Below, piece after piece: positions 26,101-62,888 of a DNA stretch of 64,000 bases (its first letter is position 1; each line of letters opens with the position of its first letter). The position numbers were made by a program, and so were the translations under genes. Origin of the DNA: Schmidtea polychroa (Eukaryota); contig CM097886.1 in NCBI GenBank assembly GCA_044892525.1, forward strand, positions 136,400,001-136,464,000. Reading direction: 5' to 3'. The notes below the pieces were generated by a model. That model did not search any database, was not told where the DNA came from, and saw only the letters and a program-made list of their open reading frames with translations.

Positions 26101-26890
26101 AGACAACACCGATCCTAGTTTGAGCCTGAGTGCAAGTAACAAATTTCGTATTGAATCTTTTTATATAATAGTAGATAAACTTATTATTGAGATGCGTAAA
26201 CGTCTTGAAGCATACGGAATGTTATATGAAAGGTTTAATTTTTTAGTGGACAGAACTTTGACAAATGATGAAATAGTTTCGAAAGCAAACAAGTTAGTGC
26301 AAATATATTCTTCAGATGTTGAAGATGCATTTTGTGACGAGTTTTTATTATTTTCACGAATGTATGGAGATAAAAAATCAGTGAACGAAATGTTAGTTGC
26401 ACAAATAAATGATAAATTAGTTACCAGTTTTCCCAATGTAAATATTGTGTTACGAATTTATTTATCAATATTTGGTACGAATGCGGAAGGGGAACGTAGT
26501 TTTTCAAAGCTTAAAAGAATTAAAAATTGTCTCCGATCAACTATGGGGCAGGAACGATTGTCAGCACTAACACTTTTATCTATTGAAAGTGATTTAATGC
26601 GAGAGATTAGTTTCGATGAGGTTATTGTCGAATTCGCAAATAAAAAATGCAGAAAAGTTATTTTAGATAATAATTGAATAAATTGTTTACTAAATTAATG
26701 TTATTTTTTTATATTTTTTTGAAAATAAATTTTTAATTATTATGAATTAAACCAATTTTTTTTTCATGCTCTGGTTAAATATTTATAATATACATTTTTC
26801 GTAAGTATAAATACATATTTTCGTAGGCCATTTAATATTCGTAGGCCCTAGGCACTGTGCCTACTGTGCCTATGGGATAATGCGCGCCTG
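23175..26890 (+). mobile_element. Full-length autonomous hAT DNA transposon (3.7 kb)
   Basis: Imperfect TIRs CAGACCCGAATTA / CAGGCGCGCATTA (10/13); 8-bp TSD tatatatg/aatatatg; single intact transposase ORF. Confidence 0.88.
24110..26677 (+). CDS. hAT transposase (TTF-type zinc finger, DUF4371-like region, hAT dimerization domain), 855 aa
   Basis: WLIYS..HCYICKLF zinc finger; catalytic motifs SIDSTPD, SYDNAS, CAAHSLNL, TRWS and AEGERSFSKLKRIK. Confidence 0.93.
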   Translation: MSDGYKRKHESGSEKRKKKIVKEEALKNMKGSLLKYITATRGNNESCSTNVHEFIGPENQNQNKTSEQLSCGSSGTEDISTDKQGTYTGETEVVEGQTSAEIIISLEDNIIEISNEISKVNLNLKYNNDPANWDITADLINYFSENKPSQNIDFNFLLKGRKYGDKTRYPRKEYFIRKLTNGETIERDWLIYSPSTGTVHCYICKLFPRVNVNVILNQFKIGFDDWKNAMSRITSHEKSKDHLDAVSAMFQLQKNSKIDVELQKEKDKLCKYWIEVIKRIVAVIKFLSERDLPFRGNNEIHNCSNNGNYLGCIDLIAEFDPFLKEHIRRHGNPGRGHVSYLSNIICEEFIGILESKVTTQIISEIKEAKYYGISIDSTPDISHMDQITVIIRYVLKCGNVVERFLKFIAIEQHDGKYLFDIIRHTLEHHNISIGNCRSQSYDNASNMSGIYTGVQARFREINKLAEWVPCAAHSLNLVGSTAVECCLEAVKFFGILEAIYTFFSASPQRWSKFKDNMKENTCVVKILSETRWSVRHDATKALFMNYSEIQKALFEITESERQPAVAVQEAKSLIKNLNNFETALMCVIWNDLLQNINIVNKALQETGIVLCTIVKLFKTLIAYFHGIRIEFDKFETMAKKLTTSEYKQHTQRKRIRNRFFDEVLDNTDPSLSLSASNKFRIESFYIIVDKLIIEMRKRLEAYGMLYERFNFLVDRTLTNDEIVSKANKLVQIYSSDVEDAFCDEFLLFSRMYGDKKSVNEMLVAQINDKLVTSFPNVNIVLRIYLSIFGTNAEGERSFSKLKRIKNCLRSTMGQERLSALTLLSIESDLMREISFDEVIVEFANKKCRKVILDNN

Positions 26891-30249: not shown

Positions 30250-31030
30250 TTAATGAACGTGTAGAAATAGTTTAGGTTATTGAGAAGTTTGAATCAGTAA
30301 TTTTGGTTAGGGGTCATTTACAAGATTCGGAATGGAAAAACATATCAATAGAAGACTTTGGAGAATATTTTGACAAAGTTTAAAGAAACTAGTAGTGTTT
30401 GTGATCTTGGGAATAAATCGAGATAAAAAACAATTCTAACAACACATCGGTAAAATAAGCCGCTGAAGAAATTGGATGCAGTTTTTTAACATTGCACAAT
30501 GTTTTAAAGAAAAATGTTTAACATACAATATTCAAATGCTCCATCGACTACTTGAAGACGATTATACTAAGAGAATCACAGTATGTGAAACTTTAATTAG
30601 TAAGATCGGCATTGATCGATACACCTGTAGAATTTGGGTCATCTTAATGAACCTAGGATAAGTTTTTCCATAATATGAGTTATAGGTCAATTCTTTTTTC
30701 ATGAGAATGTCAATGGCATTGCTTCATATCACAGGTTGGTCATAGAATGGTGTCAAAGATAATTTTGCGACAATATGTTATATGTATCAAATAATGGGAT
30801 AATGAATTGTAAGAACAGGTCACCTGACCAATCACCGTTTGAATTTTTTATTTGGGATAAAGACAAAATTACACATAATAATATCAAAGAATCTCCAAAA
30901 CTATAACAGCTGTATTAAAACTGAGAAACTTTAAATATATTCAGAAATGTGTGAAGATGTCATGAATTCTTTTTATTGTCAAATACATATGTGCATTGAT
31001 CTTATTGGACTTTCAGTTGGAAAATATTAC
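30250..31030 (+). mobile_element. Degenerate Tc1/mariner-superfamily transposase relic
   Basis: Fragments KFKETSSVCD, LLEDDYTKRITVCE and RSPDQSPFEFFIWD (compare RSPDLTPLDFFLWG). Confidence 0.6.
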
Positions 31031-33069: not shown

Positions 33070-33655
33070 AACCTAGCGGGAAAACCCCTGATGATCATTA
33101 ATTAATGATAATTTTCAGTTTACAGCCAGGAGAAAGTTAAATTTTTTAGTTTGTTTCACTCTGAAAAAATTAATTATCGTAATAATTCAAGTATAAAAAT
33201 CAACCATAAAAACATCGTTTTTGAAACTCGTAATTTCACTCAAAACTAAAATTTCAATATGCGTTCTCAATGCTATGAAATATTTATTATTACGTAAAAT
33301 CACTTTTTTGCGTGACCAAACAAAATCCTAAATTATGTGATCAATTATTGGTTCAAACTTATATAACATATTTTAGATATATTTACGTTATCTCTTTAAT
33401 CCGAAGTTTATGAATAGATTTCATATTGAAATAAGGAAATAACACTAGATTTGACATATCAATATGTTTTTAATTAATTCACTTTTCGTGATCGGATTTA
33501 TCTGAAATTTTGATGGCATGCAGTGTTCTCCACAACGAATCTAATTACCAAATTCCAGCTCAATCCGATCACGGAAAGGAGGTTAATTTAGCCCCAAAAC
33601 ATTAGTGTGGCACTAACAAACATACAAACATCAGCAAAGTTAATATAGAGAATAA
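33070..33655 (+). mobile_element. Possible Helentron/DINE-like non-autonomous element
   Basis: 16-bp internal inverted repeat ttttcgtgatcggatt (33483) / aatccgatcacggaaa (33562) and an acaaacatacaaacat tail. Confidence 0.35.
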
Positions 33656-36600
33656 AAAGAAGAAAATCAAGAAATTTGTCTACTTCCAGATGAAGACTTA
33701 GTAGGTTAAGAGAAATCATTTAATTTGCTAGGGAAATCATTAAGAAATCTAAAGGATAATTGAAGAGATCAAATTAGATCAAGGAAATAATGAAATATTC
33801 AAAATTATTTTGTGTGCAGAAATTTATTGTCATATCATTTAATTTCAATATACCATAACGGGGGGGGGGGACTTTTTTATTGACTTCATTGATATTAGAA
33901 GTTCTAAATTTTAGAACAAATGAAAAAATCAATAAATTTCAGTAGGAAGATAGGAGAAGTGACTGAGTTTTGATAAAATTAGTAAGTGAATGTATAAATG
34001 AAAATATAATAATTTGAAAATAAGAATTAAGTAAAAACTAGATGAAATAGTGATGCGAAAATATGATCAGGACTAAGGTTGGTATCACAGGAATATAAGG
34101 GTAACAACTACACGAAAGTACATAATGAAGTCCGAGAGGCACAGAAATGTGAATTTAGAGATAATAAATGCATAATTAATTATTTGAATTTAATGAAATG
34201 AAAGTAATTATAATAATTAACAGAGAAAAATAGGATGTGAAAGGAAATATTATTATTATATGATTTGGGAAGATAAAGAAAAAATTGGAGAAACTAGGTG
34301 TTAATGGAAATTAATTGAACAAATTAATTAATTAAAGAGAAAATTGGTAGAATGAAGGTTTTTTTAAAAAAATTGGTACAAATAATAAGAATTTAAAAAT
34401 ATAAAGATAAAGTATTTTTGACAGCTGTAACAGGGATAAATTTGAGAGCTGTAGAAATCTACAAATTAAAAAGAAAAGGCTGGCATTAATAAAAAATTAT
34501 GGAAACTCATAGATTTGTGAAAACATTGAAAAAATATTATTAACAGAAGATAGCTCTACTTGTCGAAGTTACCTAAATAATAAAATCCAATAATTATTGA
34601 ATGAATAAAATAATCAAGGGGAAATATATGAAATGGAGGATAGGTTTTTCCAGTATTCTGAGAAAAAAATGAGAAAAGAGATTGAAAATGTAAGAAAATA
34701 AACAGTCAATAAAAATAAAACAATGAAATATGACAAGGTCGTTCTTAAATAACAACTACAAAGTGAAGGAAGCAAAACATAAATAAAATTAAAATCGAAA
34801 TTAAATTTGCATATCTCGATATCCTGTACGAGATAAAGATAATGGATCACCGGAGAAGTTGAGAGATGGCGTCTTCTAAAAATTATATATCTCGACAGCT
34901 GTCAGAGATAATGGAGAAATTGGAGATGGGGACTGGAATGTACTGGAGGAATGAATCTAAACTAAAGTCAATATCAGTCAGTGTCATTAGATTGCAGATT
35001 ATAAAAGGAAACACAACCTGAATCAAAAGAAGGAAAAAGAATTTAGAAAAATAAAAAAGAAGTTGGAAGAGAAATAAAAAGAAAAGACAGGCAAGAAAAC
35101 AGAATTAATCGAAACTCAGTTTGAATTATGAAGTTTTCGGATAAACGATTGATAAGTTATCGAGTAAATTCAAGTTAATACTTAGAAAGTAACTAGATCA
35201 AATCTACCGATCATCAAAACCAGAATCATTACTCAAGTGGTTTTAAATTCCAAGTTGTATCCAAGGCATTGTTGTAATATTGAATTATTTTTGTCGCTGT
35301 AAATTGGTAATCAATTTTGGTAATCAATAAAAGTTTATATTGTCTGAAGTTCATTATTGTTTGTTACGCTTTGGAGTCAGATCATTAATTGGTACTATTT
35401 ATTTTCACGGACACCCTTAATAAAATGAACAAACACAAATCCTGATTTGCATGACGGTGTTCACTATCTGAACAATTTAATACAGTCATTCAAAATTCAT
35501 TCTCATTTTATGTAAATTTTCGTAATGGTTCTGATAATCAAAATTCTAGAATTGATGCAGTTTGATTTTATTGTTTTCTAATACACATTTCTGTATTTCT
35601 TTCATATCTATTTCCATTTGTTTTAAGAAAGAACCTACAAGCGATTCGTCGATAATTAAATGCGTATCAATCTGTGATTTTCGACCAAAAAGAACTTCAA
35701 CGAAATTCAACTTTTTTTGGTCGTTTTAAATCTGACTTTTGTTTCTGCAATTCAATATCGAAATATAAATTATTTGAATAGTGTTCAATATTCTTTGGGT
35801 TCAGTTAAAATTATGGATTTTCGATCTTTACTTTCATTCAAATTATTGTTCTTGTCATTATTCACAAAACCCATTACCTCGAAACGAATTATCAGTAATC
35901 TTTTCCAAAATTATAATGTTTACGGAATGGAACATTTTTCAATTCAATATTCACTGAAATTATTAAATTATATCAAATTGAATAGTTCCGAATAAAAAGA
36001 AACCCGAAATTGAAAGAAAAAGAATAGCGGTCAAGCAGAGAAGTAATGGCAAAAAAAGATATGATAAAAAAAGAACTATAAAAAGGTAAGATCAGACACG
36101 AAATGGAAAAATACCCAAATCTGAGGAAGTGAAATGAAGTCAAATGTTATCTAAATTGAAGCTGGAGAACGGGAGAGGAATAGATTATGGGATGGTGGAA
36201 ACTCCAAATTCAGATAATCAGCAGAAGAAGAAACTGACAATAGGAGTTTGAGAAACAAAACTACGAACTAAAAGGGAATTATAATAGAACTATAGAGTTA
36301 GAAAAAAGAGTATTAAAGGAGTTCAGATCAGAGAGCGGAATCAAATAAAAAGGTGAAACTTATTTTTAAATCTAACAAGGTCGAGACTGTCCAGGGCTAG
36401 GTTCGATCAGAAATTGAGAGAAAAATCATGGTTAACTAAAAGTTGTAATTATTTATTGAGAGTTGTAAATTTACAATAAAACAAATATATGTTGGGAGTT
36501 TGTGTTTGTCAATTTTGGTACACGTGGAGTCAGAGTAACCAACGGTCGACTTTTTAGTATCATAAAACCCAACAACAGTGCTACATTTACTAATAAGCTA

Positions 36601-37253
36601 AATAAACTAAAGCTTTGAGCCCCAGATTTCAGGAGCCTCTAGATTTTAAGAAAATGATGTTTTTAAACAGGGAAATATTTTATGTTGCTTTGGGAAGACG
36701 ACAATTAAAATTCATTTCTGGTGATTAAATGTTGCCAAGATGGATGCTGGTTCTCATAGCCAATTTACTATTTTAATCATTTGAAAGCAGTTAAAATTTT
36801 TTGATTTTAACAGAATCTAAACAATTGTAGCATGACAGTAACATTTTCTCTTAAACCGAAACCATGTTAGTAGAGAATTTGACATCAAAAAGACTTATAT
36901 AAATAGCCATAACACTGTTTAAGAAATAATAAAACTCACATTATTAAAATTCAAGATCTCACTAATAGATGAAAACTCTACTACTACAAAAAAACTACAA
37001 ACAAATATACAAGAAATACTTTTTAAAACTCATTGATATTACGAAAACAGAAGTTAGTGGAATAAATTTATTTGTGAAGTTGTTATTTACATATGGAGAT
37101 TAATATTAATTAAATGTTTTAATTTTTCTAATTGATTCAAATGATTTGAATGTTATAATTTAATTTTCTATATTTTTAAATATTCAAATTTGATCATTTG
37201 TTTAAATATTCAGTGTTCATGTTCTAGTTTGAAATTATAGATTTTCAAAACTT

Positions 37254-37970
37254 ATGATAGAAGAAGCGAAGTTAATAAAGCAAGGTGCCGAAGCAAAGAT
37301 TTATGAATTAACATGGCATGGAAAACCAGCAATTATAAAAGAAGTTCTTTCTAAAACATATCGACATCCTTCATTGGATAAGTTAATTATCTCTCAGAGA
37401 ATGAGGAATGAAATTAAATGTTTAGTTTGGTCTTCACAACTTGGATTAAATGTTCCAAATATTTATCATATGGATTTTGATCGTAGAATTATATGCATGG
37501 AATATATTTTTCCTTCCATATTAGTTAAAGAATATTTAAATATTCTTTTATCATCAAATGATGAATTATATGAAATTCCTAAACAAATGCTTGCTTTTAA
37601 GATTGGAAAGGATCTATCATTGCTTCATTCTAATAACATGATCCATGGAGATTTAACAACCTCAAATATGATTATTAGACTAAAGGAAGTCAATCAATAT
37701 CAAGAACTTTTTAAAATGAAAGCTGAAGAAATACCAGTAGTATTTATTGATTTCGGACTAGGCTTGAAACAGGTTTTACCAGAAGATCTCGCAGTTGATT
37801 TGTTTGTCATGGAATCAACTTTGTTAAGTACTCATCATTTAGGCGAACCATTTTTGGAAATGATTTTATCTTCCTACTTTGATGGACTATCAACAAGTCT
37901 AAAGCAAATTGTCCACCGGAAACTTGAACACGTACGCACAAGACGACGAAAGAAACTAGCGATTGGATAA
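37254..37970 (+). CDS. TP53RK: EKC/KEOPS complex kinase TP53RK (PRPK/Bud32), 238 aa, single coding exon
   Basis: QGAEAKIY, K..LSKTYRHPSLD, IHGDLTTSNM, FIDFGLG, EDLAVDLFVME and a C-terminal VRTRRRKKLAIG. Confidence 0.95.
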   Translation: MIEEAKLIKQGAEAKIYELTWHGKPAIIKEVLSKTYRHPSLDKLIISQRMRNEIKCLVWSSQLGLNVPNIYHMDFDRRIICMEYIFPSILVKEYLNILLSSNDELYEIPKQMLAFKIGKDLSLLHSNNMIHGDLTTSNMIIRLKEVNQYQELFKMKAEEIPVVFIDFGLGLKQVLPEDLAVDLFVMESTLLSTHHLGEPFLEMILSSYFDGLSTSLKQIVHRKLEHVRTRRRKKLAIG

Positions 37971-38649
37971 ATTTATTAATAAAATTTTTATTTTTCAATT
38001 AGATTTGTAATTATGTACATTTTGAATGGTTATTAAATTTTTAAATGAATTGATATGCTAAAATGTTGGGTTATATTTTAACGAAGTTTCAAAAAAGTAG
38101 AAAAAAATAATTTCTAAAAATAACAACAAATTTCGATTTGTTGAAATTTACCGAAATTTTAATTTTACAAATTAGATTTGTACGTTACTAAAAATCGCAA
38201 ATTGATGTTGTGAGGAAACTTTGAAAGTATGTCTTTCATTGAAACCATTAATATCAATTTTCAGATAATTTTTACCGAATTATTTAACTTGTTTGTTTCA
38301 TGTTTAACACATTGAATGCAAACCATTATACGGGAAATAAGTTAACCTTGACGTAGAACTGTAAGCTTGAATATCGCTGATGTCCTACATCCGCAATGAC
38401 ATCGTAATTGACCAAGATCGGGAACAGAGGTAGTCTTTACAATTATGTGAGAGCTATTTTATGTTAGCCAATCCGGCTCCGAACTCCCCCCCCCCTTTTT
38501 TTTTAATATTATTAAATAAAACTTTCATAAATATAAACAACAATTGAGAATTTCTAAAGCAATTGAATTATCTTTATAGGATCATTTATTTAACTATTTT
38601 TGCCTTTACTAATAGTATCTATGAATATTTTTGAAAAATTATTAATTGT

Positions 38650-39130
38650 TTGCATGAATTAAAACCAGTTTTTGCAGATATAGAGAATCCAATTCTGTAT
38701 CTAACTCAAACCGAATGAGAACTAGCCAAAAATTTTATTTCTCCCTTATCTTCTGACAAAGAAATTACAAACTGAAAATTTAACTCCTGGAGCATTCTTT
38801 TTTTGAGTTGAGAAACTTAATTTATCCGTTTTCCCGCACTGACGGACCGATTTTCAGTGCTATCCTCAATGAATAAAAGAGAACAACTGCTTTTGCAAAA
38901 TTAAATTTTGGTGGCCACTATTTACATTGTTCCAATGAGCATAATTTTATTAAATGACCATCAAATTACAAAAGGAAGGCTTTATGAAATCGCCGTTCAC
39001 ATCAAATGTTTTCCGGAATTAGACAATCGTGAAACACAGATCAAGTATCATTACTGCACCTTTAGCCAAGATTCAACTTCTTCAAGTTCATACGAAGATT
39101 TATGTTTTGAAAAATATTTAAATGAATTAG
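38650..39130 (+). mobile_element. Degenerate hAT transposase fragment
   Basis: TKKLQTENLTPGAFF and SMNKREQLLLQN*ILVATIYIVP (compare LLAAIYLDP). Confidence 0.55.
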
Positions 39131-39470
39131 CTGTGGTGGGTTACAGGTAAGCATACATTTTACCCTCTCGTACTGTTTCCAGTGTAACCCAGAATACAAA
39201 CGCTTGCTTTCTCTACTTGATATTCGTTGAGTGATCAACGTTGGTACTGTATCAAGAGGGTGAATGCTCGCAAAAAGTGAGCGCATGATTTGCACTATAA
39301 TTGTCTGCACTCATTGGGTTCACGGACTATCGATAGAAGATATACGCAGGATTTGCTCTGGTCCCTTGACTCTATTGTTTCCCCAAGTTCCATAACTCTT
39401 CCACTCAACTTCATCAAATTAACATGCAACACACTAATACGAAGATACGACAGTTTTATTTACATTCTAA

Positions 39471-39683
39471 TTATATAAACACCTTATTGTTCGCGAGATG
39501 ATTTGGGTGGCGAGATCCTGGTTTGACCGGGCGTCTTTGTTCGGCTAGCCGGAGTCGCTTTAGTCGCTCTCTCCCATCTCGGTTTAGTCTCTTGCGCTTT
39601 GGTTTGCCTGGCCTGGTTGCGTGAATTTCTGTCAGCTCCGTGGATACAGGTCGAATTGCTGCGGTCACGTAATCGTCGATCAC
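39471..39683 (-). CDS. Small Arg/Lys-rich ORF or terminal exon
   Basis: KPKRKRLNRDGRERLKRLRLAEQRR; candidate acceptor actaaatcag| upstream and AATAAA just after the stop. Confidence 0.35.
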   Translation of the reverse strand: MIDDYVTAAIRPVSTELTEIHATRPGKPKRKRLNRDGRERLKRLRLAEQRRPVKPGSRHPNHLANNKVFI

Positions 39684-41061
39684 TCTCTGATTTAGTTAAG
39701 TGCTGGGCTAAGTTTCGAAGGTTGATAGAGTTAAATCGAATACGAGAAAAGGAACCCCATAAAATAAATAAAATAAAATAAAGATAACTCTAACCGAAAT
39801 CCCACTAACATAAAGAGAAATCAAAGAAATCTATTAAAAGAAATCGAAATAAATAATAAAATAATAAAATCCCTAAAAGAAGGAATAAGATAGGAAATGA
39901 GGTACCTGTTACATATAACCGATAGAAGAAAAAATAACGTAATAAAATTTAAGGAAATAAATGAAAATTAAAGAAATAGAGTACAAAATAAAACAATTCC
40001 TTAGTAAAATGTCTACTGAGAATTAAAACAAAATAATACATTAAAAAGAAACAACAAAAAATCAGCAGAGAAATAAGGAAAAACAACCAACATTAATAAA
40101 ATAATAATAAAAACAAAATAAGGTAAATAAAATTTATTAAAAAACAATAAAAAACTACAAAAATAACAATAGATAATAAAATACAGCCTAACTACGTCCT
40201 GATTGGACAAAAATTACTATATAAGTAACGCATAAAATCAGTCGATCACGACTTTTAACAAACCAATACAGGTAAAAATTTTTGTTCTAAGACAACTTTT
40301 AACAAACCAATACAGATTTTAGACCACTCAACCAATACAGACTTCAACAGGACAACTATAGTAACTACAACTCTCAATTTTGAAAATTAGACTACGCATT
40401 TGGAGACCAATCCCTTCAGGAACTACTTTTCGGGAAATAACTCGTACAGTCTGATCTAACTCTATTAACTACGGGAAAATTCACAGTATGGTTTGCAACT
40501 TATTGTTTTATTGTATAATATGTTTACTATTACACTTATTTTAAAAAGAAAAATTGAGATCAATAAAATTTATTAACATTCACAAGTGGTTCTTCTTCAC
40601 GGTACTGGCGACGGTGCGATCTGGAGCCTTCGGTCACATTGCAGAAAATGCCAAAACTGGGATTAGAGTTTCGGGAAATTCCGAAAACGAGTAGAATTAT
40701 GAGATCGAGAATGAGATCAATGAATGGCACATTTATGTTCATCATGACTAGAAAATCCATAAAAATCGAATTATTGGAGATGACAAAAATTGGAATAGTC
40801 AACCCAGAGACATATGGGAGGAGATTGCATAGTGTGAAACGATTGTAGATTTGGTGGAGGCATTGTGATTGAAGGATCCACATGGCATGGTCGCCAGGTA
40901 ATTATTTCTATTGTATTTATTTATTTAGTTTTCTCTTTTTATTACATTTGAGGTTGTGGTGTGTGGATTTGTCCTTCATGACGGTGTGAGAGTGGTGGAG
41001 AAACTCCGTGATGAGATATAGAAAAAGACAATAGTAATTCCAGTTTCATTGAGTGCGATCG

Positions 41062-41248
41062 AAAAGGCATACATCTCAAATATCCTCCATAAGCAGCATA
41101 AACTCCAAATATTTGTCCATGAGAAGCGTATATTTCCAATATTTTCCAGAAAAAAAACATATCTTTCAAACATTTTCCACGAGAAGCGTAGACTTCAGAT
41201 GTTTTCCATGAATAGCATATAATTCTAATAATTTCCATAAAAGGCATC
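41062..41248 (-). repeat. Degenerate ~29-bp tandem repeat, about 6.3 units
   Basis: Minus-strand units of the form (n)ta(t/c)gcttctc-atggaaaat-atttgaa(g/a)t. Confidence 0.7.
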
Positions 41249-42740
41249 GAAGATTTCTATCGTCTAGATATTTCGACATAATCACACAGTCTCCGTTTTC
41301 GTCGTATGGCATAACGAATCAGATGGCATAGGTAAACTCATCTCGTCTAAGGAAAACCATTTGGAAGACCCAACAGTTAGTTGAATTGGAAAAATCCAGA
41401 ATTTTGCAATTGCTGCTTCCTCTGATTTCTGTGCTAGCGGTTGAACCCATCTTTTCACCGAAAATCGAAAATCTGACATCAAAACAGTTTCGTTGATCTG
41501 ATGCTGTCACTGATAAGGTTGATAATCTACACAAAAATCAGAATCGTAATTAGCAGACATAAATATTTACCTTCAATATAAACGCATCTACCAGAATATC
41601 CACATCGACGATGCCTTATCTAGACATCTGCTAGGGCCGATTTTTACTGATCTGCGCTAAACATCTGTCTCGTCGAGCGGGATTACATCAACATGATTTT
41701 TTGTTGCATCATAACATAGATAACAACATCACCTTTGTGCCGATAACGAATCCCGCACACTAACACTAATGGGAGAGCAGATGAATCCTGATAAGAAATT
41801 TTGGAAACAGCGTGGGAAAATTTCGTACGTAGTTATTTCGAGATAACTTGTTCAGCCGACGACATTAGGATAACTAATCTCGTTTCCTTTGGATTTTCTT
41901 CTCGGTTTTCCTCGCATCCACTCGATCATCCGTAGACGCAATATTGTGCGATATTTGTAGCTAGAATTATAATTGTACTAATGAATTTAAGTAACAATTT
42001 TTCGCGACGTTGTGCCCGGCGTTGGCTGATTTTCGACTTATGTAAAGACCGAAAAAAAAATCATTTTTTAGTCCTACCAGAATCTTATTTTCCGCCTTCA
42101 AAATGGGCTGTAGTAAACTGCATCACTACCGTTAATACCCTGTCACCAGCTGCGACTTTCCAAAAAATGAATTGCGTATCTCATACAATTTCCACGACAA
42201 CTACACTACAAATTGTAACGATAATACGAACAAATTTCTACAGTCTTATGACACGTCAAGGGGAAAACATTCTCTAAATATTGACCCGTAAAATTTCGAA
42301 TTATTAGAGGGATTCGGGAATAATTTTTGCAGTTAATTACTTCATCTCGATCAAATCTCTCCCAGTCCCTCATTGTCCTGTTGCTATAACGTATCACATC
42401 TACCCTGGGTAATTCAGCTATGAGTACGATTGAGGTGTAGAGGAATGGGTGAATTAATTTTTTATAAACATAATTAAACGGCATGTATAATCTACCCTCG
42501 CCGGTCCGATTTCGAGCTTAAATTGCAACTGACCAATGAATGTGGCAGTGCGGTGCGTGAAACTGATTTGAATAAATGGGGTTTGCAGGGGAATTCTATT
42601 GGATGTGTCCGAAGGGGTTATAATTTTAGGTGACTTGAAGTGGAGAGCTGTTGACGAAAGTCTGTAAGAGCTATCTTATCGTATAAGAATGTATAAATGG
42701 TTGCTACAAATTATAATAGGGAATTTCCTTTTAATTCTAG

Positions 42741-43463
42741 ATGTCAGTGCCTACCGTTCCCAGCAAAGAACTTCGATCCTGTTTTTCTTGCGCAGACAAG
42801 AACGAGGATATACGAAAGCTGCACATATATATTGGGGCTCTGAAGAAACGTATAGACACATACGAGGGCACGTGGTTCTCCCCGCCACAAATGAAAGAGG
42901 AGCGGACTAAAATCCTACGTTTGGAGCACTGCCGTGACAGTCTCCTGGAAGAGAGCAGATGCCAGCGGCTAACCATCAAGGCCCAATCAGAGGCACTGCA
43001 TAAGGTGTACACGGACGCTGAAGTCGCCAAACGCTTTCGGGAGTACCCAATTCAGGACGGGACCAACGTATTCCCGGTCCATCATCAGGCTTACGGGGCA
43101 TCAATACCCTCAACTAGCTGTCTGGGGCACGGGCCTCAACTGCCGCCCCTTTCTGAACCTATCCTGTCGAGCTCTAGGCCAGCGTCGAGTGGTCCATCGG
43201 TCCACATGCCACATGTAGTACTTCCTTCCCAAAATTTTCAACCCACTACCGATTCTACGTCGTCGATACGGAAACGTAAACGGCCTACGCGATCCGAGAA
43301 GAACCAAAAGCGCCGAAATGCTATCGCTGTCCTTATCGGTCGCACAATCAACCATCAAAGAGATTACCGCCACGCACTCCGTACCTACCAAGGAGATATT
43401 CCGAGTCGTCCCAGCAGGAGGAACAAAGTTCCTAGAAGATCGCCGATTACCAGTGGATATTGA
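42741..43463 (+). CDS. Orphan 240-aa protein (CxxC, coiled-coil, Pro/Ser linker, Arg-rich C-terminus)
   Basis: Long ORF; ATG directly follows the acceptor ttttaattctag|; upstream small exon 42631-42663; AATAAA near 43626. Confidence 0.55.
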   Translation: MSVPTVPSKELRSCFSCADKNEDIRKLHIYIGALKKRIDTYEGTWFSPPQMKEERTKILRLEHCRDSLLEESRCQRLTIKAQSEALHKVYTDAEVAKRFREYPIQDGTNVFPVHHQAYGASIPSTSCLGHGPQLPPLSEPILSSSRPASSGPSVHMPHVVLPSQNFQPTTDSTSSIRKRKRPTRSEKNQKRRNAIAVLIGRTINHQRDYRHALRTYQGDIPSRPSRRNKVPRRSPITSGY

Positions 43464-44943
43464 CGAAATGCTGGCCGAGGGAGAAGTTTTTCCTTGACTC
43501 GCGAATTAAAAGACAGTTACTTGACTCCAGTCGACTCGTTGTGATTTCCGTCATGCTTTATTCGTTTTCTATTTGACTCTTTGTACAGAACTCAGTTGCA
43601 TGTGCCATTATTCTAGCTTACAATAATAAAATTTCTATCTGTGTTTTAGTGTATTCGATTGGGATTGCTATGTAGTATGTATCTGACGAGTGATTGCCTG
43701 ACAGTGAAATTTTCTAGCAAGGTCGTCCCCTTGGACCAGGGTCGCACCAAATTATATGGTTGAATCAGGGTAAGTCCTTCTACGGCACCTTTGAACCCGA
43801 ACTGCGAGTTTGCTAAGAGTAGTCCTAAGGTAGGGGCTCACCTGTTAGTAAATTCCGATCTATGTGCGCAGTACCAACGTGTGACATCGCCACGGGCACA
43901 CATAAGGGAAATTAGCTAAGGTCATCTTGGATATCCAGGGAACCACACGCTGAGCAGACAGGGACAGTTTTATCTTGTTTTAATTTTCTTCCTTACCGGG
44001 TATTCAGCATAAGTCTACAATATACAAAGTTAGAAAGGTTTAATGAGAAAAAAATAAATTCATACATGCAAGTACTGTGCACAAAATTTCTATAATAAAA
44101 ATACACATAGTTGGACAATAATTAAGGGACTCATTTTAAATATAAAAAAGTAATTACGGATATTTTCGAAGAAAATTTTGATGTTTCCACCAACAATTAT
44201 TCCATGCAAACAAATATATAAGTTTTCTTTATTTAATTTATGTTTTGTGATAGAATTTGTGTTATTATTAAAAATTATTGAATTTTACTATGAAAAATTA
44301 TTACAAAAAATGCAAAGAATTAAAAACACGTTTATAAAATTATTATTATAATGAGTTAAATATAATTCAATAATTTCCATATTAATATTTGTAAGACTAT
44401 AGGTCAAAAAATACATAAGGTTCACGATATTTCAGCATAACCTTTGAAATAAGCACTTGATAAGAACTATACCGAAATATCATTAAAGGAGCAAATAAGT
44501 GCAGTGCACGGGGCCATTTCATAAAGTGAGAAAACGGTATTATATATACTGCTACTTGGATTTCTGTGTCCCATTGATATAACTAAACAAAATAAAGCAC
44601 CTTCAATATTTTCCTGCTTCTTTTCACAAAATCGTTGATTACATTGTCGAAGAAATTTTGTTTGTAAGATGGAACTCTAAAATATTATTGCAAGATTTCG
44701 TAACCGCAAGGTATTCATTGTACATTTTAAATAGTTCTTAATTAGTTTAAATTTAGTAAAATGACTACCCCGGAAGGAACACCCTTTTGACCTTTTAGCT
44801 ACACACCTAAGCTAACAATTAGATGAATATAACACGTAACAATTAATTCGTCCATTATGACTCTTAAAAGAATTATAAAATTAAATTTTTGAAATCAGAT
44901 TATTGATAATTAATTAAGTAATTAATTAAATCAATAACATTTC

Positions 44944-46812
44944 ATGAGCAATAAGAAACAAGAACGTATATATAATAAAGACCGAATTCAAAGAATCAAA
45001 GAAGCATCTGAAAAGGCGAAGCAGAATGATCCCAATTGGAAGAATGATGCGCCGGCGAGTATACTCCCTGATGAAGAAGATGATATGCCAATAACACAAA
45101 TGAGAACCCCTCCATTTTTAAAAGAAATGGAAAATAACACTTTAGATCAGGGTGTTGGTTTATCTAAGAAATTAACTCTAAATGAATTAACACAATGCAA
45201 CAAAGATTCCAGTCAACTGCAAGACATAATGAATTCGAGTAATATCCCCAGAAATCAACACAAAAATGAATCAAGATCCGTAAATTTTTTAGAAAAATCT
45301 CGCATGAAAAAAGTAAAGGAAAGAGACGATTTAAATCGACAAACTGCTGAAAGTCTTGATAAGGCTTCAGAAAGATGGCATTATCAATTGAAGGAATATA
45401 ATAAAACTAAAAACACTCAAGATTCAACAGGAGTTAAGTTTTCTCTATTCAGTGATGAAGTTGACGGACATGATAAATCAGAAAAAGAAAGAAATGAAAA
45501 GAGGTTAGGAAACAGACGGGTATCCGGTGATTTCGTAGATAGACTAGATTTGTTACTGCAAAGAGGGACACGTCATTCGAAAATGTTTAGCAATATGAGT
45601 AATCTTCGTAGAATTAATGAAAGGTCTTTTAATCGGTGGTCAGGAAAATTTGATAAATCTTCGTCTATGTGGGACTTGAGATATTCTCTTTTATGTAATA
45701 ATCGTGAAGGAGGAATCCGTAGCAATCATTTTACTCCTGGTTTAAGTTCATTGAAATCTGAATCAAACTTGTTATCCCACAGAAATCCACTCTGCGATTT
45801 ACCTGCAATGCATAACACTGGCTTTCAATATCCCCCGGGTCTTATAAATAATAATGCAAGCATAAATCCCAATTTGAATATCAACCCAAATTTCCAGTAC
45901 CACTCAAACATGGGATTTCCGCAGAACTATAATACCCAAAATTTTAATCAATTCGTACCGAAGCTGAATCAAATTCAAACTCCAATTGCAAATTCTGTAA
46001 ATTTATCACTACCAAATTCTAATTTGCAGCCTTTGATAAATACAAATCAATTTAGTAACCCCTTTGAAGTTCAAATTCAACCCAATCAGCCTCCTTTTCC
46101 TCAAAACGCAATGTGGTCGTTAAATTTCCCCCAACAGTCTTTTCAACAAACATTTCCCAATATGCCAAATAATTATTCCCAAAACTTTTTACCTTCTAAC
46201 CCAGCTGAAATTTGTCTTAAGACCAATGAGCCTATTATTACCAATACCAATTCATCCAGTACTGAAGGAAATAAATCCTTTGAATCGGTCACGCGAAAAA
46301 TTGATATTCTCGTCGAAAAACTAGAGGTTCTCAACTCAACCGTAGACCAATTAAAATCGGCTCAGACACGCCAAACTGAGAACTCTGTAAATAAACCTCA
46401 AAGATATGTCAATGTTTCTTCAGAAGTCGAACGACTTCCAGAGAGTAAAGTAAAGGGTATTTATCGTCCTACAAACAATCCTTGCAATTGTCCAGATTGC
46501 AAAAAAACTCCAGATAATCAACAAATTTGGGTTGATCGAAAAGTGAAGTTTGATTTAATTAGAGAAAATGACAAAGAGAAAAGAATTGAAAGTAAAGAAA
46601 TTGTAGAAGTAGACACCTCAACCAACCTAACCACTACAACTAACAACCCAATCGAGGCCGAACAAAGTTTCACTTATCCGAAAAACTGTCATCCTCGAGC
46701 GGTTCAAAAACAATTTAATCAAAACCTAAGAATATCCGATCAATTCCAGTCTTTTCATTTACCTCCTGAATTGTCCAAAATATTGGAACCGAATATTAGA
46801 AGAAGCAGTTAA
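44944..46812 (+). CDS. Orphan intronless 622-aa protein, mostly disordered (N/Q/P-rich), short coiled coil, CNCPDC motif
   Basis: An uninterrupted 1869-bp ORF in AT-rich DNA is very unlikely by chance. No recognisable domain. Confidence 0.7.
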   Translation: MSNKKQERIYNKDRIQRIKEASEKAKQNDPNWKNDAPASILPDEEDDMPITQMRTPPFLKEMENNTLDQGVGLSKKLTLNELTQCNKDSSQLQDIMNSSNIPRNQHKNESRSVNFLEKSRMKKVKERDDLNRQTAESLDKASERWHYQLKEYNKTKNTQDSTGVKFSLFSDEVDGHDKSEKERNEKRLGNRRVSGDFVDRLDLLLQRGTRHSKMFSNMSNLRRINERSFNRWSGKFDKSSSMWDLRYSLLCNNREGGIRSNHFTPGLSSLKSESNLLSHRNPLCDLPAMHNTGFQYPPGLINNNASINPNLNINPNFQYHSNMGFPQNYNTQNFNQFVPKLNQIQTPIANSVNLSLPNSNLQPLINTNQFSNPFEVQIQPNQPPFPQNAMWSLNFPQQSFQQTFPNMPNNYSQNFLPSNPAEICLKTNEPIITNTNSSSTEGNKSFESVTRKIDILVEKLEVLNSTVDQLKSAQTRQTENSVNKPQRYVNVSSEVERLPESKVKGIYRPTNNPCNCPDCKKTPDNQQIWVDRKVKFDLIRENDKEKRIESKEIVEVDTSTNLTTTTNNPIEAEQSFTYPKNCHPRAVQKQFNQNLRISDQFQSFHLPPELSKILEPNIRRSS

Positions 46813-47094
46813 ATAAAATTTACTTACGAAACGGAAAGTATAAACGGAAACTTAAATAGTCTTTTGTAATTCAGAGTTTTTAACTGATATTAATAGCACA
46901 TTTGAAGTGTCCATATTATTATATTTCAGTATTACATTGTCAAATAAATCCGCACTTGAGAGTGTAACGACATTTAGAAAAAACTTAATTACAATTAGAG
47001 TCAAGGGTTTTTAAGGTCCTCAACTTCTTTTCTTACGTTCGAAAGAATGCTCTAAATATACATAAGTTTGGATACCTAATTTTGTTATAACTCT

Positions 47095-47307
47095 AGCCCC
47101 ATCAAAAGTAATAGAAACGTCTTTAAAAAGGTAACTGAAAGAGTTGCCAATTTTTATCCATTAAATATAGTAAGCGAATGATGTAAGAAAAATAGACCAG
47201 CAGTTATTAACCGGTAAAGTATGCCTCTCCAATGGGTTTAAAGAGCGTGTAACTTCGGTGAGTTGCAGGTAATCCATAGAGACGTTTCTATTACTTTTGA
47301 TGGGGCT
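47095..47307. repeat. Perfect 28-bp inverted repeat with a 157-bp spacer
   Basis: AGCCCCATCAAAAGTAATAGAAACGTCT (47095-47122) / AGACGTTTCTATTACTTTTGATGGGGCT (47280-47307). Confidence 0.9.
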
Positions 47308-47756
47308 CTTTTGTGTTGTTTCCAACGCAACACAGAATACAAAGCCTCACTGCCACTCGACACCCTTCGAATGAACAATGTTGATAATTTTTCGAATGGG
47401 AGAATGTTAGTAAAAAGTGATCTCACTCTGGTGAACTATAATTATCTAATATTTTGATGGGTCTATGGACTATCGATGGAAAATATGTGTCCAATCACGT
47501 TCCTGCCGTTGTTTAACGCTCAGCGGAAAACATAGAAATTGTAAGAAAATTAAATTTTATTAAAAACAAAAATAAAGTATTTTTCGCATTTTTAATAGAT
47601 TTTCAGATGAACATCTGCTGTTCCCAGTTCCAGACTGAAACCCTGCATATTATCGTCAACCGAATGTTTTAAATTAATCAGTAAAACAAGTTTAACAATT
47701 TCATTAGAGTTCTCATCTATTTCGATTTATGTTTAACTACAAATTATTATCATGTT

Positions 47757-47992
47757 CAGTGGCGGCTCGTACTCAAAAATTTTGTGAAAACAAAAAAAAT
47801 TCAAAAACTTTTTTTTATTTATATAAAAACTCAATTCTTCTTGTTTTTCTACAAAATTCTTTAATTACTAAATCATGAAAATTGTCTTTAGTAGCCAACT
47901 TTTTTTAATAAGTTTTTTAAAATTTAAAATAGAATTTCTCAAAATTGAAGTGCAACAATGCTTGCATTGCTTATATGGACGAGCCGCCACTG
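47757..47992. mobile_element. 236-bp hAT-type MITE without a matching TSD
   Basis: Perfect TIR CAGTGGCGGCTCGT/ACGAGCCGCCACTG; flanks atcatgtt and cattaccc differ. Confidence 0.75.
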
Positions 47993-49389
47993 CATTACCC
48001 ACAATATCCGGGACCTCAACATATTCATTCTTGATCATTCACGAGCTACTCGACCTTATATATCTCGTTTCAGGCGTCCACCCATAACCTGTACCATGCC
48101 TTGTGGCTGAATTTTGCCACAAATTGGTAATAATTTGGTAATTTATTTAAATTTAAATAAATTAATTAATATTTAACATACCGAAATATGTATTGCAAGA
48201 AAACCGCTTATTCAATTACGCTTAATTTTTGATTTAAGTATTAATTTAAGTAAAAAAATAAGGGCAAATTAACATTTTATAAATTAAATTAATTATGAAT
48301 TAATAAATATTTCAAAGCTAACTAATAATTTTTTCATTTTCATCTTACATAAAAATGATAAAATTTTCACTAGATCAAAAATTTACAATTTTCTTTAACA
48401 ATTTTCATGCTAAACATTCCATTAGTAGACTTCATCAAGTAAATGAATATGTACCAGTAAATTTTTATTTAACATTTTCCACAAATGGCACAGAAAATTT
48501 GCCGCAGCAGTTTTTGCCCAAATTTTACCCAATTCTATTTATTCATTTAACCAACATAATTCCAAATTCAGAAATTATTCGGCATTTAGAAGTGGATTGA
48601 GTGAATTTTTTTGCAATTCAATCAAAGACANNNNNNNNNNNNNNNNNNNNNNNNNNNNNNNNNNNNNNNNNNNNNNNNNNNNNNNNNNNNNNNNNNNNNN
48701 NNNNNNNNNNNNNNNNNNNNNNNNNNNNNNNNNNNNNNNNNNNNNNNNNNNNNNNNNNNNNNNNNNNNNNNNNNNNNNNNNNNNNNNNNNNNNNNNNNNN
48801 NNNNNNNNNNNNNNNNNNNNNNNNNNNNNNNNNNNNNNNNNNNNNNNNNNNNNNNNNNNNNNNNNNNNNNNNNNNNNNNNNNNNNNNNNNNNNNNNNNNN
48901 NNNNNNNNNNNNNNNNNNNNNNNNNNNNNNNNNNNNNNNNNNNNNNNNNNNNNNNNNNNNNNNNNNNNNNNNNNNNNNNNNNNNNNNNNNNNNNNNTCAT
49001 TATTATCAATCATGGAGTTAAATGATAACCAAGAATAAAATTTCATAAAGGAATGAAGTATACCTTTAATCTCCAAAAATTTTACTTGCTCAAAATTTGT
49101 TCCTCAGCGAACGTTGGTAAAAATAATGATATTAAGCAAGTGGATTCTAAATTTTAAAGACTCGTTTGATAAAAAGAATATTCCCAGTGATAAAATCAAG
49201 TTAAAGTTAAAAAATTTGTTAAGAGGTATTTATGTAATCAAAAAAATACTTAAATCATTAATAATTATTTTCATACATTTTTCAATTTAATTTAATTAAT
49301 CCGGGAGTAAAATATTAGATTTTAATAATTTTTAATATACGGAAATTATTCAAGTTTCTTTTATACAGTCCTCTTTCGATAATTAGAGG

Positions 49390-51724: not shown

Positions 51725-52684
51725 CTCTAAATCATTTAAGTAACCAATCAAATTTTCAACTACGACATTTTCCCAATGATCTATGAGTTTTCCTTGAATA
51801 ATAAATGATAAAAATGAATTAATAAATTAATTTGTTTTTTTCTCTCCAACCTCTCCAAGGTACGTCAAATCATTTTAAATTAATTTTATTTTCATAGTCA
51901 AGTATTTTAATAAATATAAATTTGTTTTTTTCTAAAATAATATATTCAGGTGATGTATGGCATTTTCTTTCGACTGCTGATGTTGTTGATTGCAAATATG
52001 TCAGACTTGTAGAAAATAATTAAACACTTGTAATAAATGAAATCACCTCTAAGTTAATCTTTCCTTATGGTATGAAAAAAATAATATTTAAATAATTGAT
52101 AAATTGTGTAAAAGTACAATAAATTCAAGTTTTATTGATTTGCTCGAGAGAGCCTGGAGACGGTACTAGATAAGAAAACCAAATCAGCTCAATACCACGA
52201 TTGTTTGCTGAAAACAATTAGGTGAATGCAAGATTCGAAAAAACAAGAATTTTCATTAAATATATTGACATAAGAAGATTACGATAAATAATTTCCTAAT
52301 TCAATTTGATATAAGCACAAACATGTGAATACTGTCCGATGCACGCACACACATTCTTAATTGTGACATTCAGTCCAAACCACAACAAATGACAAATACA
52401 TTTGGTTTTTTTCCATCCATCTAAATGTCAAACGAATAAGCAGTTTTAAGTTAATTGGTTATTGGTGTATTTTCAAAACTACCCACAAGATATATTGCGT
52501 GAGTGTGACTTTGTAAATTGTTTGTTTATAGCAGATTCTATTTGAAAATGGTGTATAATTGCAAATTAATTTAAAGGAATCATTTCATAAATAGTTTATA
52601 GTTAATTTTAATCTCGAACCCAGTGTGTTATATTTTATATATTGTTATATTTTATATTTTGACAAATTGGAATTTCCTTTTTAG

Positions 52685-53637
52685 TGGTGATCCCGATTAC
52701 GATTCAATATATTGGATCAATTCTTGATTTTAGACTCAGACTTCAATATCAGATCGAGGATACGGAAGAATTAGACTATCCAATCGAAAAATATGAGTAC
52801 TATTTGTATCATTATCGGATCATGTTTAACCTCAGCGTATTTCTGACAATAATTGGTTCATCTTTGCCAACCTCGATCTACATGACACAAAGAAACACCG
52901 ATGAAATGTATACTATTAGTGCCTATGAGGAATTTATCAACATTTGGGGAGTTTGTCATTTGATGGCATATTTAGATATTAGCGGTAGAATTTTCTTCGG
53001 ACTTATAATAACGGTCCCCTCGCTGATAATTTTCATTTATGTCTTCCTCAACAAATACGAGACGAAAGTGATTTTTCGAATCATTTACATTTCATCTTGG
53101 GTCTCATTGGTTTTTGCTTTGATTTCCCCTCTGATGTTTGTGACAAATGAATACGAAAAGTTCACAATTGAAAATCGCTCGTTAATTTATTGCAAACAAG
53201 GTACCGAATTGACCGTTTACAATCGTTGTCGACTTTTTGATCTTTTCTGCGCTCACCTGATTCCCTTAGCAATACAGATTCCTTGCATAGTCATGATCAA
53301 AAAAAGTTTAATGTTTGTCAATAACTCCCTTTTATATGAGCCGATCATTTTCATTGTCACAAACATCCCAATTGCAATCATTGACATCATCGAACAAATG
53401 GATGCAAAACGGGTTCATTCATCGGAATTCGCCAATTTTTACATTTTGTTTCTGGCAATCTACCATTTGGGTTACACCTGTATGATTCTTGTTTCGCCCA
53501 TTCAAATGGTTTGGATGAATCAAGACAAAAATGCGCCGGTTAAACAGGAAATTAATGACGTATACAAAATTCTGATAAATCGTAAGACAATTCGTAAAAC
53601 GATCAGGAGACAATATACTGCAATAAAAACAAAATGA
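52685..53637 (+). CDS. Divergent rhodopsin-class 7TM receptor (orphan); short 5' exon(s) not resolved
   Basis: Seven hydrophobic segments, Cys at the top of TM3, W..P in TM4, YC in ECL2, Pro in TM5 and TM6; acceptor ttccttttag|. Confidence 0.65.
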
Positions 53638-60413: not shown

Positions 60414-61522
60414 TATATAAAAACATTGTATTCACATGCGAAACGGAGAAAAATCATCACTTGCTTTCTTGGATCTGTTAATACAACGCAAAGAGAAACA
60501 CTATGAGACAGAGATTTATAGAAAACCAACTGATACTGGTCTCTATACTTCATCCGAAAGTTTTTGTGAATTCAAGTATAAAAGAAATATGGTGAAGGGG
60601 TTGATTTATCGTGCATGGTCTTTGTCTTCTACTTTTAAAAATTCAGTAAAAAGTGTTGACAAATTGGTTGAATTGTTAATGAAGAACGATTAATCAAAAT
60701 CCATTTTATTAATTATGGTAAAAGAGACTGTTGACAAATTTATTAAAAATCCTCAGGATCCATGTTTGAGAAAATCTGGGTGTGATTTTGTTGAATTGTG
60801 TGAGTCTGATGAGTTAAATAAATTAAATAGTGTGAGCAAGGATGATGAGCCTAAATTTGTGTTAGTATTGTCGTACTCAGAAGATTTTAAGGATTATAAA
60901 GTAAAGATAAGAAAGCAGTTAGGGAATTTAAACTATAGGATAGTGTCAACTTCATGAAAAGTACGCAATATGTTTATTAATAAGTCAAAAACTCCAGTGG
61001 AATTATGTTCCGATCTTGTTTATCAGTTTACATGTAATGGGTGTAATGCCACATACATTGGAGAGACTTCCCGTCATCTCTGTATTCGAGCTCGAGAACA
61101 TTGTAGACCGAGGTCTTTGACCCATATTGGTGAGCACAATAAGGGCTGTAAGATTAAAATAGGTATGTCTGATTTTAAAATTTTATTAAAAAATGTCGAT
61201 TATTATTGGAAACGTGTGATTTGTGAGGCGTTGTTGATAAAGTCATTGAATCCGAAAATTAATGTGCAGAATGCAGTAAATGATTTTAAATAATTTTTTT
61301 TTGTATATTGTATGTATTGATTGTTGTGTTAAATTAAATAATTAATAAAATTTTTTAAATTTTTAAATTAAATTCTGAATGCTAAAATTTTAAAAATAAT
61401 ATATTAATTTAATTATAATTTTTAAAAATAATTAAATAATTTTATTAAAGAAAAGTTTTTTATATAATTAATAAAATTAATAAATTTGTTTAAAATCCTT
61501 AATTTATATAGTTATTATATCC

Positions 61523-61561
61523 CACGTGATGATGACAGGAAAACTATCGAAATATATCGTG
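61523..61561 (+). ncRNA. Degenerate hammerhead ribozyme at the 3' end of PLE family 2
   Basis: CACG-TGATGA-T-GACAG GAAAA CTATC-GAA-ATAT-A-TCGTG. Palindromic helix III AUAU; core appears to have lost C3. Confidence 0.5.
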
Positions 61562-61822
61562 AAAAGAATNNNNNNNNNNNNNNNNNNNNNNNNNNNNNNN
61601 NNNNNNNNNNNNNNNNNNNNNNNNNNNNNNNNNNNNNNNNNNNNNNNNNNNNNNNNNNNNNNNNNNNNNNNNNNNNNNNNNNNNNNNNNNNNNNNNNNNN
61701 NNNNNNNNNNNNNNNNNNNNNNNNNNNNNNNNNNNNNNNNNNNNNNNNNNNNNNNNNNNNNNNNNNNNNNNNNNNNNNNNNNNNNNNNNNNNNNNNNNNN
61801 NNNNNNNNNNNNNNNNATGTAC

Positions 61823-62109
61823 CATAATTATGCTATATCCCCGCCATAATTCGCTCCATGTTGCTGGACATAGTGTTCTTTCTATAGTTGATTGATTGTG
61901 AAACGCATAAACATTTGCAGGAGCGCTGCAGACCACACATCGAGAAATTAGGTTTTTCACTTCACTAACATGAACCGGGTTACCAATCGGATTCAAGTTA
62001 CTAAGCCAGTAGGAGCGTGCATTTCGAATGTTAAAATGACAACCGGGTTGTCTGTCACAGTGTATCACAGGAGTAGCACTGAATTTCTCTAAACAAGAAG
62101 CCGGTGAGC
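61823..62109 (-). CDS. COL4A: Collagen type IV alpha chain exon (NC1)
   Basis: GSPASCLEKFS...SYWLS...ISRCVVC...WRGYSIIM|GTACAT; 44-nt intron upstream (62110-62153). Confidence 0.92.
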
Positions 62110-62153
62110 CTGGAAAAATATTAAACCTTTGAACACTGTACATTGATCTTTAC

Positions 62154-62888
62154 CGAGATCCATGGCTGTGAGATGTTCATTTCCTCCAGACATAACAAAG
62201 CTGTATCCCGTTCGAATCAAATTCGTACCTTCTGGACATTCGTAGGTGTCATTTTTAGATAATTCTTGAAAGTGTCTTGCAAAGAGAATTTCAGATCTGT
62301 TGATTGCTGCTCTCTCACCTTTCATTCCAATATCACCCTGAATACCGGGAATTCCTTTAATACCAACTTTTCCTTTAATTTTTAAACCAGTTGGTCCTGA
62401 TCCTCCTCTTTCTCCTTGTTTACCTTTTATTAAGCCAGGAAGACCCTTTTCTCCTTTATTTCCCCTTTCTCCTTCTTCGCCAATTGTACCATTTTTTCCT
62501 TCATCGCCAGTTTCTCCCTTTTCCCCTTTAGTTATTTTACCAGGCAGTCCCTTTTCTCCTTTTACCGATTTTCCAATAACTCCTTTTCCTCCTCTTTTTC
62601 CACCAATTCCTTGAGGTCCAATAGGACCAATGGGGCCTGATTTGCCTTTTTCCCCTATGTCTCCTTTTAAACCTTGTTCTCCTATTTCACCCTTTTTACC
62701 GATCTCTCCAATTTCACCTTTATCTCCAATATCACCTTTAGTGCCATTTTCTCCTTTCTCTCCCATTTCGCCTTTAAGTCCTCTTTCACCAGGACTGCCT
62801 CTCTCTCCAGTTGTTCCATTTTCACCCATTTCACCTCTTATGGCATCAGTTCCATTTTTTCCAACTTCTCCTTGATCTCCAATAGGTC
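62154..62888 (-). CDS. COL4A: Collagen type IV alpha chain exon (Gly-X-Y plus NC1 start)
   Basis: Gly-X-Y repeats followed by ILFARHFQ...CPEG...GYS...DLG. Confidence 0.93.

Follow-up and report, generated by a model that had tools for sequence, protein, structure and literature searches.

What is the GC-enriched segment in an otherwise AT-rich stretch of the planarian Schmidtea polychroa genome, and is it one element or several? It lies in a window of 64,000 nucleotides (GenBank assembly GCA_044892525.1, contig CM097886.1, 136,400,001 to 136,464,000, forward strand; positions below are those of the window), which is AT-rich animal sequence with assembly gaps. The original prediction, made from the letters alone, took 39183-47700 for one island of about 8.5 kb with orphan open reading frames (ORFs), part of a large, recent mobile or viral-type element, in which 39183-44020 would be a long terminal repeat (LTR) of about 4.8 kb. 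We favor, with moderate confidence, another reading: the segment would be a pile-up of three related repeat ends, here called A, B and C, which surround a single-copy orphan gene, ORF622, and are likely LTRs of the same retrotransposon superfamily; one of these LTRs would likely be a self-contained gene, ORF240, whose product would bind the nucleic acid of the element.

The shift in composition is real, as GC is 35.9% in 39183-47700 versus 27.8% elsewhere in the window, but it is uneven (39.2% in 39134-44019, 31.8% in 44020-47700 and 25.2% in 44001-45000), and GC is clearly raised in 39134-44019 only. Evidence on copies comes from contigs of four public runs (X1, X4, X5 and X8) aligned to 33400-48620 at 80% likeness; depth summed over these contigs is a contig-based measure and does not equal copy number. 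X1, X4 and X5 are DNA-like runs from two studies, and X8 is a run that we guess to be RNA. X1 and X4 come from the same study and are identical to the window, so that they may be the source of its sequence; X5, from the other study, is ~1% different. Contigs specific to the locus have depths of 12-38 (X1), 172-360 (X4) and 24-48 (X5). Given as X1/X4/X5, as in all triples below, the summed depth is 37832/248454/70995 in the bin 38988-39495, 17714/120038/16876 in 42544-43051 and 10516/30806/9437 in 43560-44067; it is 319-485 in X1 in 39496-41019 and 56-116 in 41020-42543, and over 45084-47115 it is 12-15/228-305/42-52, i.e., 1.0-1.5 times that of the locus's own contig. Thus, the left part (39134-44009) is repeated, parts of it hundreds of times over background depth, and 44380-47100, with ORF622, is single-copy in the run contigs. 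This mosaic is directly observed in all three DNA-like runs, across both studies, and the island is neither one 8.5-kb element nor one 4.8-kb LTR. Of two ways in which the original prediction might have failed, a single-copy island is what we find for 44380-47100 but not for 39134-44009, and an assembly contaminant is at odds with the presence of the sequence in three DNA-like runs from two studies. Described in the original prediction as lacking the microsatellites and miniature inverted-repeat transposable elements (MITEs) found elsewhere, the island does contain short interspersed repeats, at 44050-44101 and 44363-44409, and the decayed hAT fragment described in its left flank has no hAT match there in any frame.

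The left boundary of the repeated part is seen directly. Among the contigs listed, 62 in X1 and 73 in X4 break at 39134 into unlike AT-rich sequence, which puts the true end of the repeat at this position rather than at 39183; the LTR-like sequence read as the island's start, TGTAACCC, is one arm of a stem whose other arm lies at 39138-39145. From this end, element A (39134-42148, minus strand, 3,015 bp) is likely a solo LTR, as loose contig ends and a target duplication suggest. It has TG...CA ends with a short inverted repeat (TGGTG...CACCA plus ACAGG), and the GCTG at 39130-39133 (plus strand) recurs at 42149-42152, directly after CACCA (42144-42148). CACCA with GCTG directly after it arose in 0.8% of 1500 simulations, and with CCTGT adjoining as well, as at the left end, in none of them; nine end/length combinations were tried in the search. 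It is because GCTG and CACCA recur at 42148 with CCTGT adjoining that A looks like a 3.0-kb solo LTR, and in each of X1, X4 and X5 there are contigs that run across the 42148 junction. A long inverted repeat considered at 42148 was set aside as gappy and within background.

The internal order of A fits this identity. Its conserved, U5-like terminal module (39134-39345, minus) has the highest summed depth of the island, that of the bin 38988-39495, versus ~30/238/42 for the locus contigs. The last 57 nt of the minus strand fold (z -2.1) into a three-way junction with a GAAA loop and no Rfam match: a stem of 7-8 bp carries two hairpins, and ACCA is left as a 4-nt tail. The sole minus-strand AATAAA in 39134-40132, at 39455-39460, is a likely poly(A) signal. 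At 40202-40411, four CCAAT boxes and one ATTGG beside TATATA (40218-40223) form a candidate promoter whose direction the motifs do not fix; the CCAAT clusters of the original prediction stand at this place, while their island-wide excess (3.8 vs 2.5 per kb) falls mostly within ORF622. The predicted 29-bp array is likewise present, as seven degenerate 29-30-bp units at 41054-41260 (mean column identity 71%; not detected by TRF even at score 30), in the U3-like part of A. The predicted minus-strand Arg-rich ORF, in contrast, is a stop-free frame of 101 aa (39484-39789) with no ATG and no Pfam match, and may be chance, as 35 of 300 simulations gave one as long. A broken ubiquitin-protease (UCH) Cys-box look-alike at 41760-42119 (minus; Pfam UCH, E 0.038, 14 bits vs a cut-off of 23.9) is left doubtful, being one of 21 segments scanned and without a PDB match.

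The terminal module of A recurs in copy C (47256-47487, minus), which was not listed in the original prediction and is directly observed: over ~210 bp, 144 of 209 positions (69%) are identical, and the likeness begins at the same terminal base. C appears to be an older module of the same superfamily, with its element body running rightwards. Between A and C, seven of the 11 pairs of the terminal stem are unchanged, three are compensatory and one is broken, a pattern with a chance of 0.0026 in a simulation with the observed substitution rate; a shuffle test of the stem, limited by its two rows, gave 62 of 500. Two other readings of these ends were rejected. A UvrD-helicase reading of the two terminal copies, made by eye, has no Pfam support, the likeness being due to their shared non-coding end, and 39134-47255 as one tandem unit or LTR pair fails because the ends are only 69% alike and the right half is single-copy. 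The predicted perfect 28-bp inverted repeat is borne out as the first 28 bp of a 31-bp repeat with a 151-nt spacer (47095-47307), whose arms (47095-47125 and 47277-47307) match at 30 of 31 positions and whose right arm lies inside C. A 236-bp MITE with perfect 14-bp terminal inverted repeats (47757-47992) adjoins C.

Element B (42153-44009, plus) is likely a partial LTR of a related family, with depth up to that of the bin 42544-43051; its 5' end was not found, and its 3' end was placed by likeness to A and C. Its terminal module (43771-44009, plus) is likely an inverted homologue of the end of A, to judge by alignment and fold: 121 of 208 aligned positions (58%) are identical, collinearly and with an exact 12-mer. 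The alignment scores best when it ends exactly at 44009 and has the top score in the window, a score reached by none of 1000 dinucleotide shuffles, and the other strand does not score. On this sequence comparison, we regard the homology as quite probable. Only on the plus strand does the B end fold into a terminal stem of 8 bp, with AGCA as its 4-nt tail (z -0.4). Upstream of it, a putative TATA box (TATAAA, 42692-42697, plus) lies 49 nt before the ATG of ORF240, and a putative poly(A) signal (AATAAA, 43625-43630, plus) followed by GT-rich sequence lies downstream of that ORF. In both A and B, the homologous module is 320-385 nt 3' of AATAAA, which is the place of U5, and the order of promoter motif, AATAAA and conserved U5-like module is found in both by motif and depth. 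The hallmarks of LTRs are TG...CA ends, AATAAA, a GT-rich stretch, tandem repeats in U3 and a more conserved R/U5 (PMC3601003), and in planarians piled-up LTRs and an enrichment in LTRs are nothing unusual (PMC11410931). We consider the LTR identity of the three repeat ends fairly likely. The left flank of A (38669-39127) is repeated as well, at low copy (one X4 contig matches it with 61 differences), and might represent the 5' part that B lacks.

The 240-aa plus-strand ORF within B was rightly predicted. ORF240 (42741-43463, plus) is longer than any ORF in 300 simulated sequences, and has a conserved core with predicted long helices (aa 25-118), a Pro/Ser linker and a basic arm (aa 176-193). 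That it belongs to a protein family is directly observed. A HMMER search of 1.84 billion representatives gave 11 matches (E 5e-10 to 4e-4, 30-40% identity), and a profile search of 7998 candidates gave 11, five of them new, for a total of 16 homologues, outside of which ORF240 forms a long branch; nine core positions are invariant across the first 12 sequences of the family. Fourteen of the 16 are fused to 14 different unrelated Pfam domains (e.g., SNF, CRAL-TRIO, MCM, actin, hAT and ankyrin), from which we infer that the gene models have spliced in a dispersed repeat, and the 10 looked up are unnamed singletons. AlphaFold places helices at aa 17-41, 48-89 and 92-101 (mean predicted local distance difference test score, pLDDT, 74), and ORF240 is a predicted coiled coil with a basic arm. 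Foldseek, a check proposed with the original prediction, gave no match of E < 0.001 for ORF240 against viral and PDB sets; a PDB profile search with the family gave none, an Atlas structure search with two homologues no usable match, and a word search none among 462. Scans of viral and metagenome collections likewise came back empty. We conclude that the family is an undescribed repeat-borne domain that matches no known family or fold; the literature searched held no description of it and no LTR-internal gene, either of which Repbase and Grohme et al. 2018 may contain.

Several features of the family bear on what the protein might do. Rev binds structured RNA through a basic arm, and Rex and Rec were compared alongside it. 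A basic arm (at least 8 Arg or Lys in 15 aa) follows the core in 10 of the 16 homologues, with up to 11 Arg in 15 aa; that of ORF240 is of the Lys/Arg type, with 9 such residues, 5 of them Arg. PPxY, a motif used as a viral late domain, follows the arm in three of the 16 (P0002, P0004 and P0005) and is absent from ORF240. The leucine-rich export-signal pattern, used in its commonly known form, occurs in P0004 and P0005, and also arises in 22-32% of shuffles. Among the X8 pieces listed, none lies over ORF240, which is evidence neither way.

Known elements offer partial parallels. Burro/GYPSM1, a giant Gypsy-like element of planarians, is very abundant, with implied multi-kb LTRs, tandem repeats and accessory ORFs, but its accessory domains lie in the polyprotein or an upstream ORF, and the portion of the source consulted describes none inside an LTR (PMC6431247). 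A Burro-type gag-env-pol polyprotein with BIR, MATH, BCL2 and ankyrin domains, which is not expected in solo LTRs, is absent from 27 frame segments. CERV of Caenorhabditis elegans Cer1 is likewise a lineage-restricted accessory protein with long helices, an orphan that an LTR retrotransposon uses for RNA export; it differs in having 517 aa and being spliced from the gag region, whereas ORF240 is one exon and apparently within an LTR (PMC10309623). In plant Gypsy elements, gene23 of Grande and TRP28 of Retand are conserved orphan ORFs, present in most family copies, with their own promoter and proposed as nuclear regulators (PMC7264820, PMC11963269), but their place is downstream of pol and before the 3' LTR, in most cases in antisense orientation, while ORF240 lies between the repeat's own TATA and poly(A) signal. 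By analogy, ORF240 would at best work like CERV or these plant ORFs, as a member of neither family. Likewise, the U5-IR of Rous sarcoma virus is a conserved stem at the U5 end beside the integrase site (cited in PMC3601003); here, the fold is a three-way junction with a GAAA loop and no Rfam match, and its role is conjectural. The best reading is of LTRs of a Gypsy-type superfamily, possibly Burro, with an accessory gene of their own that likely encodes a nucleic-acid-binding regulator.

We propose that A is a minus-strand solo LTR left by recombination between two LTRs, with a variable U3 (the tandem array and CCAAT boxes), a poly(A) signal and a conserved U5 with a terminal stem, and such an origin would account for its 4-bp duplication. 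A would have landed into or beside B, a plus-strand partial LTR, in which ORF240 would be transcribed from TATAAA at 42692 to AATAAA at 43625. Given the order of TATA, ORF240, AATAAA and U5 in B, the ORF would lie in R, which is transcribed, and its mRNA could then be made from every copy, even a solo LTR. The protein would associate with itself by way of the helices, while the basic arm would serve to enter the nucleus and to bind nucleic acid; it would act in trans on full-length elements. Its job could quite conceivably be another one, or the protein could be dispensable; a role like that of Rev or CERV, as an adaptor for RNA export, is a tentative suggestion, RNA packaging or chaperoning is doubtful, and regulation of transcription is unlikely. 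More specifically, and rather improbably, an R-encoded coiled-coil protein with an Arg arm might bind the structured U5 RNA, the LTR thus holding both regulator and target module, an independently invented switch like that of Rev and its response element (RRE), expressible from hundreds of solo LTRs.

A number of results weigh against this proposal. No gag, pol, integrase, primer-binding site (PBS) or polypurine tract is linked to any of the ends, none of the 16 ORF240 homologues is joined to a retroelement domain (gag/pol), and a target duplication was found at one of three ends only, that of A, and not for B or C. The 42148 end of A has no excess depth, and among the contigs listed, no sharp end shared by dispersed copies was seen at 42148 or 44009; none of these contigs spans 39161-40983 or 42809-44380, two stretches in which copies may therefore be mixed in the assembly. 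As to the homology of B, an A+C profile (nhmmer) gave only one further, weak match (43815-43947, plus, E 3.9), background windows picked by score also reach a shuffle z of 3-4.8 (131.6 vs 147.6), and the B stem is one base out of register with that of A, the paired cells being 75.8% with three rows. The fold z-scores of both are weak, and the structure was chosen after viewing. Finally, the ORF240 arm holds only 5 Arg, the sole Pfam REV match among the 16 homologues (P0006, 19.1 bits) is under the cut-off of 22, and no class-1 leucine-rich export signal follows the core of ORF240, which also differs from CERV and Rev of human immunodeficiency virus 1 in having no sequence or fold match to them.

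Among the rival explanations, the one that survives best, although unlikely, takes 39134-44009 for a single element of 4.9 kb that would move as a unit, like DIRS-type elements or linear virus-like DNA, and would have long, diverged ends in inverted orientation and two transcription units that read outwards; its stem-plus-NCA ends would possibly prime replication, as the tRNA-like 3' ends of retroplasmids do. The two ends are likely homologous to each other in inverted orientation, each lies downstream of a poly(A) signal and has a stem and 4-nt tail, and the flanks differ and show no duplication, as is the case for tyrosine-recombinase elements, which make none. However, A is closed in itself at 42148 by its short inverted repeat and 4-bp duplication, depth differs between the two ends by a factor of 3.6 to 8, with a nearly single-copy middle, and C would be an unpaired third end. 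No frame encodes a recombinase, reverse transcriptase or polymerase: of the frame segments scanned (27 long, 21 short; stops read as X), none has a Pfam family above the cut-off, be it tyrosine recombinase, Rep/helicase, PolB/capsid or transposase, ARAGORN finds 0 tRNA genes, and Rfam gives three chance matches (E 2.8-3.6), none at the element ends.

The model of the original prediction, with one 4.8-kb plus-strand LTR (39183-44020) of a giant Burro/SLF element and ORF622 as its internal accessory gene, is hard to maintain. The left 4.9 kb is indeed multi-copy and GC-rich, Burro elements exceed 30 kb with internal regions of up to 25 kb (PMC6431247), and TGTGGTG at 39132 is a 5' motif of the CsRN1 clade (PMC3601003), but the contigs break at 39134 rather than 39183, neither 39132 nor 39183 shares a target duplication with a CA near 44020, no PBS follows 44019, and the single-copy depth of ORF622 contradicts the model for that gene. 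Two opposed related pieces, A closing at 42148 and B ending at 44009, fit better. What remains of the large, recent mobile element with accessory genes is the multi-copy left 4.9 kb, its LTR-like build and an accessory ORF, not a single unit. Least probable is a reading of A and B as non-autonomous DNA transposons (Ginger-like, Pack-type or Helitron-like) with shared conserved ends and captured cargo, ORF240 being cargo or a partner gene: TG...CA ends and 4-bp duplications are also those of Ginger elements, and the near-unique middle of A contains the doubtful protease fragment, but A has one high-copy end only, whereas elements with terminal inverted repeats conserve both, there is no CTRR end and no transposase or Rep/helicase match, and the order of promoter, poly(A) signal and conserved end suits LTRs.

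In the pile-up that we prefer, ORF622 (44944-46812 from the ATG, plus) is likely a host gene and not part of A, B or C. As predicted, the 622-aa ORF is real, being longer than in all 300 simulated sequences; it is intronless and rich in Asn, Ser, Gln and Pro, and an orphan, with no Pfam match and no homologue among 5119 candidates of 342-1089 aa. Five X8 pieces lie over it (depth 4-6.6), which is weak evidence of expression, because X8 was found through this stretch.

Other features surround the segment. A second multi-copy repeat at 33400-36575, with high-depth ends and A-rich stretches and ending near CCCAACA at ~36574, is likely another LTR family; kinship with A or B was rejected, as 11 of 12 comparisons are within shuffles, one shows a weak excess (39 vs 34) and nhmmer gives no match. 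At 37233-37970 (plus) lies a kinase-like ORF of low depth, presumably TP53RK/Bud32, with Pfam Pkinase and RIO1 under the cut-off and X8 coverage from 37216. An open 893-aa hAT transposase frame with DUF4371 and a hAT dimerization domain (23996-26677, plus) is possibly young, GIY-YIG-like Penelope fragments lie at 3160-3495 and 60958-61293, and a mariner-like remnant near 30467-30661, seen by eye, has no Pfam match. Also recognized by eye are exons of a RING-finger gene (15110-18987, plus), an intronless, hydrophobic 324-aa ORF resembling a seven-helix receptor, with no Pfam match above the cut-off (52663-53637, plus), and a collagen Gly-X-Y frame with a type IV NC1-like frame (61544-62922, minus), which accounts for the GC rise at the window end.

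Whatever the job of ORF240, at least 14 public gene models have picked up its domain, a point of relevance to annotation. If the proposed reading is true, ORF240 would join CERV as one of the rare accessory proteins of LTR elements, and there would already be a candidate for its RNA target. LTRs here would then be genes and not merely promoters, and solo LTRs, usually thought inert, could be the source of a protein that acts in trans on full-length elements, the very elements that PIWI-interacting RNAs hold down in planarian cells (PMC8532177).

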